Of a DNA stretch of 47,248 bases, positions 34,657-41,866 are shown in pieces. The notes under the pieces are model-generated. The model was not told the DNA's origin. It did no database searches and worked only from the letters and a program-made list of their open reading frames with translations. The position numbers and the translations under genes are program-made. Source of the stretch: a virus (lineage: Duplodnaviria > Heunggongvirae > Uroviricota > Caudoviricetes); IMG/VR virus record IMGVR_UViG_2711768052_000011. One strand, written 5' to 3'. Within the stretch, counting starts at the first letter, position 1, and every line of letters begins with the position of its first letter.

Positions 34657-34970
34657 GACAACCTCCTGTATTGGACGTACACCAGTCCTGATAAATATGA
34701 GGCTGTCTCATCATTGATGAGATACAACTATTGGGTATAGTTTCTGTGATTTTGTTCTGTAGAAATGGAACACAACAACCAGTCTCCACCAGCACTTCTT
34801 TAAATACGCCAAGTCCGACGCAAGCTAACCTTCTAGTCCGCTTTGAGCGAACTGTGGAAGCTCGCAAATGTTGTTACATCTGATGAAGGCATTACTCAAA
34901 GGAGGGGATAGTAGTCAACGTGGAGCAGGCCATGTTAGTATTTTTATACAATTCGACTAAGGGAAAAACA

Positions 34971-35840
34971 ATGAGGCTTTACATAATAGGAAATGGATTT
35001 GACATGCGTCATGGCTTACCAACAGGATACAAGCACTTTAAGTCGTATGTAGAAAAAAATGACCAAGATCTATATGACGCGATAGAAGAATACATTCCTG
35101 CTGGGGACGAGTGGAATGAGTTAGAAAATGCTTTAGGTGAAATTGATTATGAGCTTATCCTTCAAAACAGTGAGATATTTTTGGCTTCATACAATACCGA
35201 TGATTGGAGCGATGCTTATCATCACGATTACCAATATGAAGTAAATAAAATCACACAAATGCTGTCAGCTCGTTTGAAGGAGCAATTCGCTGATTGGGTT
35301 AAAGGGATTAACATAGCCGATGCTTACAATCCTAAGCAATACATCCCGCCCATACCAAGAGAAAGCATCTATTTTTCATTTAATTATACAAATACCTTGC
35401 AGCAGATCTATGCCGTTCCAGACGAGCAAATCATACATATTCACGGAAATTGTAGTTACGATGACGATCTCATACTTGGTCATAGTTTTAGGGTGGAAAA
35501 GTCACTAAATCCATATATAGGACCGGATCAAGATACAAGAATAGCAGAGGCATACGACAGAATAAACGAATACTTCGGTAATACATTCAAGCCCAGCGAA
35601 GACATAATTAAAGAAGAAAACGTTTTTTTCTCATCGCTTAAAAATGTGGACGAGGTCATCGTTTTAGGCCACTCGCTCGCCGAAGTTGACGGTGAATACT
35701 TTACTGAAATAAATAAAAGCATCCAAGAAAATGCTCGATGGATAGTTGCTTTATATAGAGGTGAGAAAAAATCAGGCAGTTTAGAAGATTATGGTATCAG
35801 AGGCTCAAATATTTCTTACGTACAGTATGAAGATATCTGA
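34971..35840 (+). CDS. AbiH-like abortive-infection protein
   Basis: N-terminus MRLYIIGNGFDMRHGLPTGYKHF matches AbiH-family hallmark; AT-rich; ORF track begins at GTG 34920 with AAGGAGG upstream. Confidence 0.6.
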   Translation: MRLYIIGNGFDMRHGLPTGYKHFKSYVEKNDQDLYDAIEEYIPAGDEWNELENALGEIDYELILQNSEIFLASYNTDDWSDAYHHDYQYEVNKITQMLSARLKEQFADWVKGINIADAYNPKQYIPPIPRESIYFSFNYTNTLQQIYAVPDEQIIHIHGNCSYDDDLILGHSFRVEKSLNPYIGPDQDTRIAEAYDRINEYFGNTFKPSEDIIKEENVFFSSLKNVDEVIVLGHSLAEVDGEYFTEINKSIQENARWIVALYRGEKKSGSLEDYGIRGSNISYVQYEDI

Positions 35841-35923
35841 ATGAGACTTCATATTATAACTATAATTATGTAAAAAAGGCTGGTATTTTATACCTTGAGG
35901 AAAATAGATAAGAGGAATGAGGT

Positions 35924-37321
35924 TTGGTTATGATGAATTATACTGATGAGTCAACTTTTCTTGAAAAGTACAAACCGTTTAGGAAGTTTTGGACAATTTT
36001 ATCACCTCATTATGTATCTTTAATGCATGCACTTGCCAAAATGATAAGGGGAGGGAATCCAATTCAAGAACTACCTTCCAATGATGAGGATTTTCTTGCA
36101 GAGTATGAAACCTGTCTCAAAAATTGGAAAGACTCACAAAAAATCATATCTTTTGAGATTATTATTCGGCTGAGAGATATAAAAAGATTGGAAACTGAAA
36201 AAAAAGAGCACCATCGAAACAAGGATAAAGAAAATAAAGAAAAGTGTATTAATGAAATAAGTTTAAAAAAATTTGAAATTCTTATTCTTCGCCGTTGTAT
36301 TGACTCAATAATTTGGAGCATTCTTGATGAAGAACACTCTAGTTTGCGGCGTTTACCTATTAATGCAAGCAATGACAATCTATCAGAAGATAACATAATT
36401 GATTCTATGGTCGCAGCCGATCTTATCAACCAGGACAAACACTCCGTAGCGATTGTCTCTGACATGAGCACATTTGTTCATGTGGGAGATTTAGTCACCT
36501 TTAATCTACTGGATGGCTTCCAGCTCGTGGAAGTTAAAACAGGTGAAAAGAATAATGAGCTTTATGAAGCTGCTGAATTTTCTGTTATCTCAGAATGTCC
36601 GCACTTTGAAGAAAACTTCATTAACAATATGCCTGATAATGATGTTAAGCAATTTAATCGCATAAAAAGGCAAATCATTCGTGGCATGAATGTTCTGGAG
36701 GCGATTAATACTGGCGAGGGCTTTGACAACTTTCATCAGTCTAAAGTTAAAATCAATGAGATAGATCATCCGTCTGAATTTTATACCCACCGCTTAGTTA
36801 AAATGTGGGAGATTATTCGCGGAGGAAAAAATTGGGCAATTGATACTATTGATGAATGTTTGTTCTTAGGTATGTACCGTGATTCTGAAATGGGCTTTGT
36901 TGCCTTCAATGGATGGATGGATAGTCTCGGTATAAAAAGCCCTGTTGTGAATATAAATGATTCATTCTTTGACCCTTTGTCTCGACCATTTATGAGTTTG
37001 CATCTGCCAACTGAAATGCTCTCCGATCTCATGTCGGGACAAATAATCATCGTCATGTGTTTTGACAATGAACTTTTTTTTCACCGTGCTAACAAAACGT
37101 ACCCGGGTTTATATCTCCTTAGCGATGCAGCAAGAACAAAGCAGCCATTAGAAAATATTCTTCGTGTTGGTTCACAAGGGATAGCTTCTTACGTAGATGG
37201 GAATACCAGCTTTTTAGGTAATGGTATTGAATCCCGTATCCTTTTCGATCAGCAACGACCCGACAACATTATTGAGTGGAGCTATGCTAGAAGCGATCTC
37301 AAAAAGCAACATGAAGCATAA
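35924..37321 (+). CDS. uncharacterised 465-aa partner protein, possible PD-(D/E)xK-like motif
   Basis: Co-oriented 83 nt downstream of AbiH-like gene; TTG/ATG start region with GAGG SD; charged coiled-coil-like stretch; VGDLV ... LVEVK motif. Confidence 0.55.
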   Translation: MVMMNYTDESTFLEKYKPFRKFWTILSPHYVSLMHALAKMIRGGNPIQELPSNDEDFLAEYETCLKNWKDSQKIISFEIIIRLRDIKRLETEKKEHHRNKDKENKEKCINEISLKKFEILILRRCIDSIIWSILDEEHSSLRRLPINASNDNLSEDNIIDSMVAADLINQDKHSVAIVSDMSTFVHVGDLVTFNLLDGFQLVEVKTGEKNNELYEAAEFSVISECPHFEENFINNMPDNDVKQFNRIKRQIIRGMNVLEAINTGEGFDNFHQSKVKINEIDHPSEFYTHRLVKMWEIIRGGKNWAIDTIDECLFLGMYRDSEMGFVAFNGWMDSLGIKSPVVNINDSFFDPLSRPFMSLHLPTEMLSDLMSGQIIIVMCFDNELFFHRANKTYPGLYLLSDAARTKQPLENILRVGSQGIASYVDGNTSFLGNGIESRILFDQQRPDNIIEWSYARSDLKKQHEA

Positions 37322-37583: not shown

Positions 37584-38006
37584 TCACTTCAATAAATACC
37601 GAACATCCCCCTGATAAAACGACAATATGCGCTGCATAACCTCACTCTTCCGGCACTCGCGACAGATTATGTTCAGGTGCCTGTCGTAGCGGCGTATTTC
37701 TCCGTCTGGTAACGACCAGATAAAGTCCGGATCAACTACAGATGTTTTCTTCAGCTTTGCTCTCGAGAGTTTTTTGCGGGCGTTTTGCCAGTCCTTACGA
37801 GCCTGTTCTGACGGGAATAACCCATAGCCAGAGTTGTATACATCCCCACTGGCAACCAGCTCTCTGGCCAGAACGTTCATCAGATATCTTGTTGCCCCAG
37901 TTTTAGTTTCCAGTTGTCTTAACGTCTCGCGCCCACTCTGGCGTACAAGTTCAACAACCTGCCCTTTAATTTTTTCCCGCTCTTCTTGTGTAAATACTTT
38001 TGCCAC
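37584..38006 (-). CDS. hypothetical phage early protein
   Basis: 140 aa, GTG start with AGGAGG SD, last gene of minus-strand early operon; C-terminal CxxC. Confidence 0.5.
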   Translation of the reverse strand: MAKVFTQEEREKIKGQVVELVRQSGRETLRQLETKTGATRYLMNVLARELVASGDVYNSGYGLFPSEQARKDWQNARKKLSRAKLKKTSVVDPDFIWSLPDGEIRRYDRHLNIICRECRKSEVMQRILSFYQGDVRYLLK

Positions 38007-38046
38007 AAGCCCTCCTGAAAATTACCTCATGACCAGAAATTAACAC

Positions 38047-39156
38047 TTACCCCCTGAACCCCGGCGGAATTTCGGTGTCCGGTTCAGAAATATGATTCAC
38101 ACAACGCTGGTTGTTCGTGCCGCTTACCGGGAGCAACCAGGGGTTTTCAAAATTCCGGTCCGGTCCAAAAAACGTCGTCGCTCGCTGAACAAATTCCGTT
38201 CCCGTTTTCCCGGTAGCTGCCAGGTATCTTGCGTAACGCCTCACGCCATCCAGCATGGCCTCTGGTGGCACCCCCTCACGTAATCTGGCCTTCCAGGCAC
38301 TGAAAGCGGATTTCTTCGGGTTTGCCCCGGCACGCAACGGGTACTCCCGCCAGACCTGTTCGAACACATCCGGATAATCCACTCGTCCCACAGACAGCCC
38401 GGTGTTTTCCGGGACTACCCGATCGGCTTCCCGCTGAATGGCGGAATCGGCTTCAGGCTGCTGCAGTTGGTGTGATTGCTCCGGCCTTGGGGTCATCACC
38501 TGCTGCACAGCGCCCGAATCGGCTTTCAGCGCATACGCTGAATCGGCTTCCGGTGTCGTGCCTGCTGGCTGACCAGGATTGACGGTCTGAACATCCCCTG
38601 CCTGGTTCGTGGTGTTTTTTTCGCCATGAACCATAGTGTTTTTGTCCTGTTCCTGTTCTTTCTCCTGCTCCTGTTCTTGGCTTCGAAGCCCCTTCAAAGC
38701 CCCTTCGAAGCCCCTTACCGAATTTCGGCTATTATTCCGCCTCACATCCAGATGGAAATCCGTTTTATATCTGTCGTAAAACGCTGACAGAAAAGCGTTT
38801 TCAGGTAATGATGCATACTCATTCCTGACACCTGCACAACGGTTATCGCCAGGCTTCAACGTTTTCCCAACCTGCCAGGCTGCCATTTCATGGACCCAGA
38901 CCATCTCGGCATCATGGTCATAGCTACAAAAACCAGCTTCAACAGCCCTTTTAAGCCCCTTTGAAGCCCCTTCCAGACCAAGCCCGGTTTCATGAGCAAG
39001 GTATAAAACTGGCAGGTAATACAAACCCAGCATATTTGCGTGAGGGGATGTCATCAGGTAAAAAGCAACAACTTGCGCTTCTGCACCCGCCTTTCTAAGT
39101 TCTCTCCCCGTTTCTCCCAGCCAGAATCGCGGAGAAACTTTTGCGTAATCACGCAT
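38047..39156 (-). CDS. putative replication protein (replisome organiser / YdaU-like)
   Basis: Start MRDYAKVSPRFWLGETG with GAGG RBS (ORF track to 39267); low-complexity EQEQEKEQEQ linker; contains iteron-like repeats. Confidence 0.5.
   Translation of the reverse strand: MRDYAKVSPRFWLGETGRELRKAGAEAQVVAFYLMTSPHANMLGLYYLPVLYLAHETGLGLEGASKGLKRAVEAGFCSYDHDAEMVWVHEMAAWQVGKTLKPGDNRCAGVRNEYASLPENAFLSAFYDRYKTDFHLDVRRNNSRNSVRGFEGALKGLRSQEQEQEKEQEQDKNTMVHGEKNTTNQAGDVQTVNPGQPAGTTPEADSAYALKADSGAVQQVMTPRPEQSHQLQQPEADSAIQREADRVVPENTGLSVGRVDYPDVFEQVWREYPLRAGANPKKSAFSAWKARLREGVPPEAMLDGVRRYARYLAATGKTGTEFVQRATTFFGPDRNFENPWLLPVSGTNNQRCVNHISEPDTEIPPGFRG
38684..38716. repeat. iteron-like tandem 11-bp repeats, cluster 1 (3 copies of cRAAGCCCCTT)
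   Basis: Three head-to-tail copies with 11-bp period inside replication gene, read in three different codon frames. Confidence 0.5.
38942..38972. repeat. iteron-like tandem 11-bp repeats, cluster 2 (2-3 copies of AAGCCCCTT core)
   Basis: TTAAGCCCCTT TGAAGCCCCTT preceded by degenerate copy; approx. 230 bp from cluster 1. Confidence 0.45.
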
Positions 39157-39167
39157 GGCTACCTCAT

Positions 39168-39196
39168 CTGGTGCCGAACCTTCCTCCGGATATAAT
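39168..39196 (+). promoter_or_regulatory. candidate promoter for plus-strand ORF 39235..39690
   Basis: Perfect TATAAT approx. 38 nt upstream of GGAGG-ATG; weak -35. Confidence 0.3.
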
Positions 39197-39234
39197 CTGT
39201 GGTTCCCAATCGACAGAACCAGAGGAGGTTCGAC

Positions 39235-39690
39235 ATGTATTTTTTGAAAAGCCTTTATCAGGCTCATGTATTAAATGTTGCAGCAACAAACCGCTGGTGT
39301 AACAGCCCCGAAATGCTCCCGGATTACAGAGCCTGGCTGCGCGCCGAAACATACCTTCGTCTCGACATATTGATTAGCGAACTTCAAAAAGAGACTGCAT
39401 CCATTCATAACCTTCAGGGTATCGACGCTGTTCGCATTCTGGTATCGCGCCATAGTGCTCTCTCAATAATTGAAGTGCGTCATCTCTCTTTTTCTGAACT
39501 GATTTTCTTGCTTCAACCAGCTCTGGAATCAGCGAATATCCCACCGGAAGTGATCCAATACCCACCTCATGTTGACGAGCAGTTACAAGATGTGCCATAC
39601 AACCAGCGTGCTGGATTGACTCCCTGCTCAGAGGCTGAATGGGATCACTCTCTGCTGAAGAAATACCAAGATTTGTATAATCCTCAATAA
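39235..39690 (+). CDS. hypothetical protein (convergent to early operon)
   Basis: 151 aa; GGAGG, 6-nt spacer, ATG; codon usage looks typical; overlaps a minus-strand ORF. Confidence 0.4.
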   Translation: MYFLKSLYQAHVLNVAATNRWCNSPEMLPDYRAWLRAETYLRLDILISELQKETASIHNLQGIDAVRILVSRHSALSIIEVRHLSFSELIFLLQPALESANIPPEVIQYPPHVDEQLQDVPYNQRAGLTPCSEAEWDHSLLKKYQDLYNPQ

Positions 39691-39883
39691 GCCCGGCACA
39701 CGCTTCTGCATCAGCCAGCTTTATTCTGGTTTCCTTGCGCTGTTCTCTGGCTGACAAACGCCAGAGCAGCGCATTAGCTTTATGTATCAACCACTCTGCC
39801 AGCTCCACATCAGATAAACCGCCACGCCAGATGTGCGGACTGTTTTCGTAAACGCTCAGTGTCAATTTTTTGTCATTACTCAT
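39374..39883 (-). CDS. hypothetical protein downstream of ydaT (alternative to plus-strand ORF)
   Basis: Start MSNDKKLTLSVY 13 nt after ydaT stop; weak SD; several AGA/ATA codons; overlaps 39235..39690. Confidence 0.3.
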   Translation of the reverse strand: MSNDKKLTLSVYENSPHIWRGGLSDVELAEWLIHKANALLWRLSAREQRKETRIKLADAEACAGLIEDYTNLGISSAESDPIQPLSRESIQHAGCMAHLVTARQHEVGIGSLPVGYSLIPELVEARKSVQKKRDDALQLLREHYGAIPECEQRRYPEGYEWMQSLFEVR

Positions 39884-39896
39884 ATTTATTACCCAA

Positions 39897-40322
39897 TTAA
39901 TGCACAGCCAGAGTGTTTCCTGCCGGGCCACCACGATTCATCTGATTGAAACCAGCGATCGCCACTGCGACAAAATCATCAGCGTCTCTCACCAGTCGTT
40001 CCCGCGTCTCCACCAGCTCCCGAAAATAAGCTGAACTGTGGCTGCGCATTCTGGCCACCAGCAAAGGTGGCATTGCCTTTTCGATCGCTGGTAACAACGC
40101 CTGAATTTTTTCAACTGCATCAGGGGTGTCTTTCTCCACCCAGCGGAAAATTTTCTGAGTATTGCGAGCCAGGGCTTCCGGATGGCTGTCGTCATACAGT
40201 TCTGGGAACGTCATACCCAGTTCAAAATAAGCCCTGGTTATTTCAGCTGCCGGAACTTTTTCACCGTCCGGATGCGCCCAGGCATTCATCGCCATGCGGA
40301 TGTGTTCATGCTTGATTTTCAT
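39897..40322 (-). CDS. ydaT: YdaT-like prophage protein (toxin-associated family)
   Basis: 141 aa directly downstream of ydaS-like gene as in Rac-type immunity regions; name by recall. Confidence 0.7.
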   Translation of the reverse strand: MKIKHEHIRMAMNAWAHPDGEKVPAAEITRAYFELGMTFPELYDDSHPEALARNTQKIFRWVEKDTPDAVEKIQALLPAIEKAMPPLLVARMRSHSSAYFRELVETRERLVRDADDFVAVAIAGFNQMNRGGPAGNTLAVH

Positions 40323-41522: not shown

Positions 41523-41866
41523 TGAGGTTGACGATGGAATTTAAAGATTTACCAATGCCATTCCAGGAAATGGCAGCGAATATAGTTCATTCTCAATTGG
41601 CGACTCTTGACCTGAGTACCGTAGAAAAAGAAACCATCGATACTATATCCGGTAACGTGCGTCGTGCCTTTATCGGTCTGTACGAAGAGAAGCAGCTCTC
41701 TGATAACCAGGATTTACATGAAGAAAAATACTTCCTGGATCTAATGGACATCATTAATAAGGGGCTTGGCTTGTTAATGGAAAAGAAAGGGATTCGGATA
41801 GAACCCCTTGAAAATTGCTTCGTAACAAGAAGCATCAATTCTTTTGATTCAAAACAAGAGAATTAA
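41522..41866 (+). CDS. hypothetical protein (position of ydfB/ydfC)
   Basis: 114-aa ORF, start overlaps previous stop. Confidence 0.5.
   Translation: MRLTMEFKDLPMPFQEMAANIVHSQLATLDLSTVEKETIDTISGNVRRAFIGLYEEKQLSDNQDLHEEKYFLDLMDIINKGLGLLMEKKGIRIEPLENCFVTRSINSFDSKQEN

Follow-up and report, generated by a model that had tools for sequence, protein, structure and literature searches.

Phased 9-bp repeats inside a prophage replication gene mark a candidate origin of replication

The window analysed here, the whole 47,248-nucleotide (nt) stretch of IMG/VR virus record IMGVR_UViG_2711768052_000011, contains a putative replication initiator gene (38047–39156, minus strand) inside which a 9-bp sequence recurs with an 11-bp period in two clusters. 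The host region is a lambdoid Escherichia coli prophage with 99.9% identity to E. coli SE11, and related copies are present in 477 of 5,426 complete E. coli genomes (around 9%), O157:H7 included. The replication gene comes after an upstream early region of cI, cro-like (YdaS) and YdaT genes. It encodes 369 amino acids, arranged as a predicted N-terminal winged-helix module, a linker rich in Glu and Gln (the EQ tract) and an exchangeable C-terminal module. The open reading frame (ORF) spans 38047–39267 and its first ATG, at 39267, lies upstream of 39156; the gene probably starts at 39156, because the RefSeq entry and all homologues begin there (the homologues start with MRDY).

The 369-amino-acid form is labelled 'DNA-binding protein' by RefSeq in E. 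coli SE11. The protein matches PHROG 1701 'DnaD-like helicase loader' (E = 1.9 × 10−145), PHROG 3729 'replication initiation protein' and several other PHROGs so labelled, as well as one labelled 'replisome organizer DnaA-like' (E = 1.2 × 10−4). Pfam searches returned no family for the whole protein at E values up to 0.01 and none for the C-terminal half at E values up to 1. The last 24 residues of the protein weakly resemble DnaT. A search of PDB sequences with a profile of the family was discarded, as its matches were limited to the low-complexity EQ tract and included nothing relevant.

The 9-mer reads AAGCCCCTT on the plus strand and AAGGGGCTT on the coding strand, and has the form AAG-GGG-CTT, with symmetry in the outer triplets only. 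Cluster A (38686–38716) comprises three exact copies (38686–38694, 38697–38705 and 38708–38716) and encodes R-G-F-E-G-A-L-K-G-L-R. Cluster B (38942–38972) comprises two exact copies (38953–38961 and 38964–38972) and a degenerate one, CAGCCCTTT, at 38942–38950; it encodes E62-G-A-S-K-G-L68-K-R-A, at the start of a predicted recognition helix. All five exact clustered copies and the degenerate copy lie inside the gene. A sequence-only reading of this DNA had reported five core copies in two clusters about 230 bp apart, with an 11-bp period in each. Exact copies indeed begin at 38686, 38697, 38708, 38953 and 38964, the gap between the clusters measures 236 bp, and Tandem Repeats Finder recovers period 11 at 38681–38716 (3.3 copies) and at 38946–38972 (2.5 copies). 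A repeat search places both clusters in one 42-nt family (79% identity, 256 bp from start to start). The same reading held that successive copies fall in different codon frames (E-G-A, K-G-L, R-A), and the coding strand agrees: cluster B is read E-G-A / K-G-L / (K)R-A and cluster A F-E-G-A-L-K-G-L-R-S, the frame changing from copy to copy.

Exact copies of the 9-mer number six in the window compared with 0.30 expected, and none of 100 shuffles reached six, so we rejected a chance repeat. The sixth copy, at 41759, stands alone with no partner 11 bp away. When one mismatch is allowed, the count for the whole window is not enriched (12 copies compared with 11.1 expected); the signal is thus one of local phased clustering. 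A half copy in the opposite orientation (38675–38683; AAGCCAAGA on the coding strand) bridges cluster A and the EQ tract and, with the neighbouring copy, forms a palindrome, GGCTTCGAAGCC, that was detected by an inverted repeat search. We also considered AATCGGCTT, present four times at 38421–38549 and two mismatches from the inverted motif, and rejected it as a source of extra iterons because its spacings (24, 72 and 24 bp) all preserve the reading frame, its translation is (E/K)ADS and its place is in the exchangeable C-terminal module. These copies are a protein-level or in-frame duplication outside the 11-bp system.

To place the repeats in an evolutionary context, we used the N-terminal 163 residues as a query. 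A word-indexed search returned 445 proteins at E ≤ 0.001, and an exhaustive search returned 4,111 clusters at 50% identity, 2,404 of them at E ≤ 1 × 10−10. From one-genome-per-species contigs we drew 80 loci, which span Enterobacterales, Acinetobacter, Xanthomonadales, Burkholderiales, assemblies labelled Acidobacteriota and Planctomycetes, and others. Nearly all 80 carry AAGGGGCTT on the coding strand at nt 184 and 195 of the gene, and a second cluster of 2–4 copies lies at around nt 440–462. Exact copies are concentrated in nt 150–520 of the gene (169 copies, 5.7 per kb) compared with the other 453 kb (24 copies, 0.053 per kb), and the spacing is exactly 11 bp in 127 of 166 successive pairs.

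The codons that encode the repeats are almost invariant. In a codon alignment of 76 genes (39–68% GC, median pairwise protein identity of 58%), the 13 columns with the lowest codon entropy among 101 conserved amino-acid columns all fall at residues 60–68 and 152–159, the two clusters; the minimum for cluster A is at residues 152–159. Glu62 is encoded by GAA in 59 of 60 genes (frequency of the same codon elsewhere in these genes, 0.46), Gly63 by GGG in 64 of 66 (0.21), Ala64 by GCT in 53 of 67 (0.16), Lys66 by AAG in 62 of 62 (0.61), Gly67 by GGG in 57 of 66 (0.21) and Leu68 by CTT in 63 of 75 (0.11). The third base of Ser65, the codon that contains the 2-nt spacer, is unconstrained, and every codon is in use at Gly58, Leu59, Ala74 and Gly75, near cluster B. 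In the half-copy region, Ser159 is AGC in 66 of 67 genes, and cgAAGCCAAGARCAR comes after cluster A in almost every homologue. The bias persists separately in the 27 genes with at least 60% GC and in the 14 with less than 50% GC. The DNA sequence itself, and not the peptide, is under selection at the repeats. This is in line with the sequence-only reading, which had argued for a function at the DNA level: the 9-mer, its 11-bp phasing and both positions in the gene are kept in homologues, with synonymous codons nearly fixed. Repeats unconserved as DNA in homologous genes would have spoken against that reading; the 76 genes show the opposite.

These data bear directly on the idea that the repeats merely reflect a repeated peptide (EGAxKGL), or that they arose by chance or slippage and have no function. 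Three units make 33 bp, or 11 codons, so that an in-frame duplication of a cluster is possible; both clusters encode similar peptides, and slippage is seen, with seven tandem copies in one relative. However, synonymous codons are fixed solely under the 9-mer, the peptide changes to EAPSKPL when the DNA flips, and it is unconserved where the DNA motif is absent. A repeat maintained at the protein level is ruled out by the codon and orientation data, and we regard this explanation as a whole as extremely improbable.

A subfamily of six loci (L060, L066, L067, L068, L070 and L078) lacks the motif within the gene. In these proteins, residues 60–67 are not conserved either (AANLAAGL, LDDLTKGL and others); the joint absence of motif and conserved peptide indicates that EGASKG is not needed for folding. 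One relative tolerates a 13-codon insert of extra copies between helices 2 and 3. Some 930 bp ahead of the gene, four members of the motif-less subfamily (L066, L068, L070 and L078) have one exact AAGGGGCTT within a conserved stretch of non-coding DNA, ccggttaatAAAGGGGCTTgtacaactgaata, that adjoins palindromic operator-like sequences; in the same four, the cluster A region retains a degenerate ACCTT repeat with an 11-bp period. Separately, L075, a Burkholderiales metagenome-assembled genome, contains a second, paralogous gene (1480–1560 and 1770–1815) in which cluster B consists of seven exact tandem copies, cluster A has the orientation pattern FRRR (F, forward; R, inverted) and the EQ tract is long. 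The extra 55 bp would break the reading frame, and this paralogue may be a pseudogene that persists as an array of sites, or it may result from slippage or from an error of assembly.

The orientation of the copies varies among homologues. Phages 75/02 Stx and PhiR5_2, which share 77% DNA identity with the window, have an exact cluster B and a cluster A of two inverted copies. Across the family, cluster A mostly runs opposite to cluster B; 26 of the 76 genes are exactly FF/RR or FF/RRR, the direct FF/FFF arrangement of the window is found in 2, and the mixed patterns FRR, FFR and RF also occur. The encoded peptide follows the orientation of cluster A, switching between E-G-A-(S/L)-K-G-L and E-A-P-S-K-P-L. 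Arrays are also found outside coding sequence. In Acinetobacter prophages, 2–3 phased copies occupy positions −40 to −5 relative to the gene, over the ribosome-binding site, and one viral contig (L132, 5236–5300) has five phased copies, four in one orientation and one inverted, that take up the intergenic space between two genes that look structural; no recognised initiator gene is nearby in the fetched stretch. Together, the flips and the non-coding arrays exclude an explanation at the protein level, and the retention of the motif in either orientation indicates that it is recognised as duplex DNA.

Orientation also informs the possibility of an RNA or single-strand element, in which cluster B (AAGGGGCUU twice) would pair with cluster A (AAGCCCCUU two or three times) 256 nt away in the mRNA. 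The commonest layout in homologues, FF followed by RR or RRR (the 26 genes above), is perfectly complementary. In the window, by contrast, the clusters have the same orientation and pairing is impossible, yet all five copies are exact, which largely refutes the idea here. Arrays of mixed orientation and non-coding direct arrays likewise retain the 9-mer and its phasing. No Rfam family matches. We therefore consider such an element very improbable.

The main rival to an origin is a regulatory role, in which the same sites would be bound by the encoded winged-helix protein for autorepression, as a transcriptional roadblock or for looping between the two arrays, with the origin elsewhere. Its sole support within the family is the Acinetobacter arrays, which overlap the Shine–Dalgarno sequence, a position typical of autoregulatory operators. 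A parallel that also favours regulation comes from plasmids, whose Rep proteins use related repeats at the origin as well as at the promoter of their own gene. However, no upstream phased pair exists in the window or in 75 of the 80 loci; such pairs were found only in the Acinetobacter relatives, and only the intragenic clusters are universal. The intragenic sites lie 180–460 nt past the start, a poor position for the control of a promoter. Two features described below, synonymous AT enrichment near cluster A and inheritance of the sites together with the DNA-binding module while the C-terminal half is swapped, fit the logic of the lambda and SPP1 origins instead (PMC7466680, PMC6316719). On this evidence, a purely regulatory function seems unlikely.

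The presumed reader of the repeats is the N-terminal domain (38737–39156, minus strand; residues 1 to around 140), which is predicted to be a winged helix. By the predicted fold, the helix at residues 60–73 would be the recognition helix, with cluster B encoding its first residues. Seven coliphages share window positions 38047–38642 at 96–97.5% identity. Their N-terminal half is different, and the mosaic junction falls in the EQ tract. In Escherichia phage Tritos, the one of the seven that we examined, the replication gene (L083, 3001–4071, minus strand) contains no AAGSSSCTT. A different repeat, ATGTCACG, is present at nt 136, 157, 406 and 417 of that gene. It forms two clusters around 270 bp apart, shows an 11-bp step and lies within the part that encodes the N terminus, which suggests the same two-array origin layout with another specificity. 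By sequence comparison, the motif is co-inherited with the N-terminal module and not with the exchangeable C-terminal half.

The conserved DNA beside this mosaic junction could be a recombination linker, and the encoded protein is a putative partner of the repeats. In such an explanation the sites would serve another factor, a host or phage protein that acts in recombination, packaging, partition or module exchange. However, the motif keeps its link to a single protein module over a host range that runs from Enterobacterales as far as assemblies labelled Acidobacteriota and Planctomycetes, which disfavours a host-specific factor, and it is absent from the phage with another N-terminal module (Tritos). 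To our knowledge, the 9-mer matches no known host-factor box. Moreover, arrays phased at 11 bp typify cooperative protein binding and not recombination hot spots. We judge this explanation improbable.

The DNA around cluster A has several features of its own. The (GARCAR)n tract (38644–38682, minus strand) encodes SQEQEQEKEQEQD, is purine-rich on the coding strand and is free of secondary structure. The sequence-only reading had noted a neighbouring CTGTTC-type repeat that encodes the linker; this repeat, at 38645–38676 with a period of 6, does encode QEQEQEKEQEQ, and Tandem Repeats Finder assigns it periods of 6 and 18. As protein, the EQ repeat is kept in all homologues; its codons are unconstrained (relative entropy of 0.9–1.0), its mean folding energy across homologues is around −1 kcal/mol, and its GC content at third codon positions (GC3) is 10–13 points under the gene mean. 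The tract may be a zone of unwinding or helicase entry, or a plain protein linker; since its codons are unconstrained, a protein-level and a DNA-level cause are inseparable.

Directly after the EQ tract is a hairpin or palindrome with a 12-bp stem and a T7 loop (38603–38633, plus strand). Folded as DNA, the plus strand (−8.8 kcal/mol, z = −5.8) is more stable than the minus strand (−5.9 kcal/mol, z = −2.2), owing to G–T pairs. The hairpin is kept in phage 75/02 Stx with one compensatory pair. Among homologues, windows that begin 0 to +12 nt past the EQ tract have a mean z of around −0.9, with z < −2 in 21–27% compared with around 4% elsewhere; a hairpin at this position is thus enriched although its sequences differ, and the non-coding strand tends to be the more stable one (33 versus 13, P = 0.003). 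The hairpin and the T-rich run that follows it resemble an intrinsic terminator antisense to the replication gene. Promoter and terminator scans in this region gave scores that were not above those of shuffles.

Between the clusters is a relatively AT-rich stretch (38747–38807) with 38–43% GC, compared with 55–63% in the C-terminal half, which is a candidate DNA-unwinding element. A dip of 9 points in GC at gene nt 350–410, which corresponds to this stretch, is conserved (73 homologues), and GC3 is 6–15 points under the mean of each gene from around codon 116 to around codon 190, with falls of 10–15 points on both sides of cluster A. We discarded GC skew at the scale of the window as an indicator of the origin, given that it tracks the direction of transcription and is uninformative.

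Taken together, we think it likely that the repeats are iterons bound by the initiator that the gene itself encodes and that they form an origin within that gene. The identity of the binder, melting and the start of replication at this place, and the mode of helicase recruitment are parts of the model that we infer. The N-terminal winged-helix domain would bind 9-bp double-stranded sites in its own gene; initiators would fill sites 11 bp apart, around one helical turn, and hence lie on one face of the helix. Occupancy at the two arrays 256 bp apart would build a nucleoprotein complex, and strain from it could fall on the AT-enriched surroundings of cluster A as well as on the (GARCAR)n tract, which is strand-asymmetric and free of structure. 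Helicase recruitment would then be the task of the exchangeable C-terminal half.

Several points weigh against an origin at this site. Our literature searches found no account of the 9-mer, of iterons, of 11-bp repeats or of an origin for this family, including phage POCJ13, and no reports of binding or replication for its members. In the plasmid collection, this gene was found only in prophage-like or large records and in no minimal replicon, a result that is not decisive. Because the upstream Acinetobacter arrays are operator-like, the function could be partly or wholly regulatory. The AT-richness of the flanks is modest, as GC in the window falls only to 38–45%, and the EQ tract of high-GC relatives is itself GC-rich. 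Two arrays of 2–3 copies of 9 bp, 256 bp apart, differ from the single array of lambda, with its four to six iterons of around 19 bp and internal dyad symmetry. The binomial P values for codon bias ignore the shared ancestry of the homologues, although the contrast between neighbouring codon columns is independent of those values.

We also examined how far the 9-mer extends beyond this family. When viral contigs were scanned for arrays of three exact copies in phase, 100 loci emerged. Of these, 67 encode this N-terminal domain, and their array is intragenic and usually occupies the place of cluster A. Among the 33 further loci, 31 have the array within an ORF, and most of these ORFs look like low-GC phage proteins of similar build that resemble more distant families of replication initiators. 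Their build comprises a conserved N terminus, IEGALKGLQRGL at the equivalent helix, a second EGASKGLQSP and then a low-complexity linker, which in these proteins (L086–L181; for example, L102, L100 and L109) is GIGNGIGNG, KEKEKE or DMDMDM, not EQEQEQ. Six distant representatives tested contained no Pfam domains. Three were compared with PHROGs; one corresponds to PHROG 270 and one to PHROG 1701, both of which are annotated with replication. One distant group aligns to the family of the window in a profile comparison (probability of 73.5%, E = 2.9 × 10−5). For a second group (MAKRF[TI]DT...), the profile–profile comparison was not significant; in some of its members the array is at codons 16–26, another place in the protein. 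The DNA motif is thus better conserved than the surrounding proteins.

These observations raise the tentative possibility, which we would not yet favour, that AAGGGGCTT is the near-universal iteron of a very large and ancient superfamily of phage winged-helix initiators, in which the site encodes the start of the predicted helix that presumably reads it. The superfamily contains thousands of clusters at 50% identity and has no Pfam model. With reader and site on the same stretch of DNA, their joint invariance from phages of Enterobacteria to Bacteroidota-like phages could be explained, and the site would still be able to flip its orientation, to change its copy number by slippage and to move within the protein.

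The surroundings of the replication gene differ between relatives. In the window, the initiator gene is followed by a DUF977 or Ren-like gene (37584–38046) and no helicase-loader gene is present downstream, whereas in the related Stx phages the initiator gene is immediately followed by a DnaC-like gene (L001/L002, 3254–3994). Downstream of the replication module is a low-GC island (34920–37321, plus strand; 36% GC) that encodes an AbiH-like abortive-infection protein (34920–35840; PADLOC E = 1.8 × 10−27) and, adjoining it, a 465-amino-acid ORF without a family match (35924–37321). The island probably represents a prophage-borne defence cassette. On the other side of the replication gene, 39199–39934 contains two overlapping ORFs on opposite strands, each matched by a family library: the plus-strand ORF (39235–39690) is an 'ECs1072 family phage-associated protein' in RefSeq, and the minus-strand ORF (39374–39934), which fits the direction of the operon, matches PHROG 8304 from end to end (E = 5.5 × 10−120). 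At most one of the two is likely to be real.

The repeats provide a candidate origin for a module that is found in around 9% of complete E. coli genomes, prophages of O157:H7 among them, in the Shigella and E. coli Stx phages 75/02, POCJ13 and PhiR5_2, and in thousands of protein clusters elsewhere. They are also a natural case of a doubly constrained coding sequence, in which a DNA signal dictates part of a conserved protein motif; the fixed codons, the flips that rewrite the peptide and the joint loss of motif and peptide lead to this conclusion. Such a double constraint matters for annotation, for models of synonymous sites and for the recoding or codon optimization of phage genes. As a simple sequence tag, the invariant 9-mer array could help to locate the origins of this module among prophages and viral contigs from metagenomes.

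One architectural parallel is the origin of lambda. The sequence-only reading had drawn an analogy with lambda ori inside gene O, and here the architecture held, whereas homology to O (no Pfam hit) and the form of the repeats (9 bp, in two arrays) did not. As in lambda, the candidate initiator sites are inside the coding sequence of the initiator itself and travel with the N-terminal DNA-binding module, the C-terminal half being exchangeable, and the gene lies downstream of an early operon of the cro/cII type. The order of iterons, easily opened tract and palindrome recalls ori-lambda, which includes a palindrome, although AT-richness is modest here. In lambda and Stx phages, repeated initiator sites within gene O lie beside easily melted AT-rich DNA (PMC7466680). 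The prophage protein, by contrast, has no sequence relationship to O (Pfam Phage_rep_O is not matched), one of its arrays is within the codons of the predicted recognition helix and not in an inter-domain linker, its AT-rich element is weak and no P-type loader gene follows.

The Bacillus phage SPP1 offers a second precedent. Its replisome organiser G38P binds direct repeats in its own gene (oriL in gene 38) with an adjacent unwinding element, and a second, non-coding copy is located among late genes (oriR) (PMC6316719). The intergenic array in L132 resembles oriR, and the 'replisome organizer' PHROG label fits. However, we detected no homology to Phage_rep_org_N or G38P (no Pfam hit), the window has only the isolated copy at 41759 and no second non-coding array, and the hosts and motif are unrelated.

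Iteron plasmids (pPS10 RepA, R6K pi, F RepE and pSK41 RepA) share with this system a winged-helix DNA-binding domain, here predicted, and direct repeats phased with the helix. Their iterons are usually 17–22 bp, lie outside the rep gene and are plasmid-specific as determinants of incompatibility, whereas the prophage 9-mer is intragenic and stays invariant across a great breadth of hosts; the window also lacks related repeats at the promoter of the initiator. The Tritos-type proteins, in which a replisome-organiser N terminus is joined to the shared C-terminal half, have the same gene position, a C-terminal half that is 96–97.5% identical and a repeat of their own, ATGTCACG, in two clusters. 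Their N-terminal domain and repeat differ, and AAGSSSCTT is absent, which makes them a natural control for specificity. Overall, the principle of an origin within the initiator gene is known, and here it would extend to an uncharacterised family without a Pfam model; what was not expected is the invariance of the 9-mer across phyla. The overlap of the site with the codons of the predicted recognition helix is also notable.

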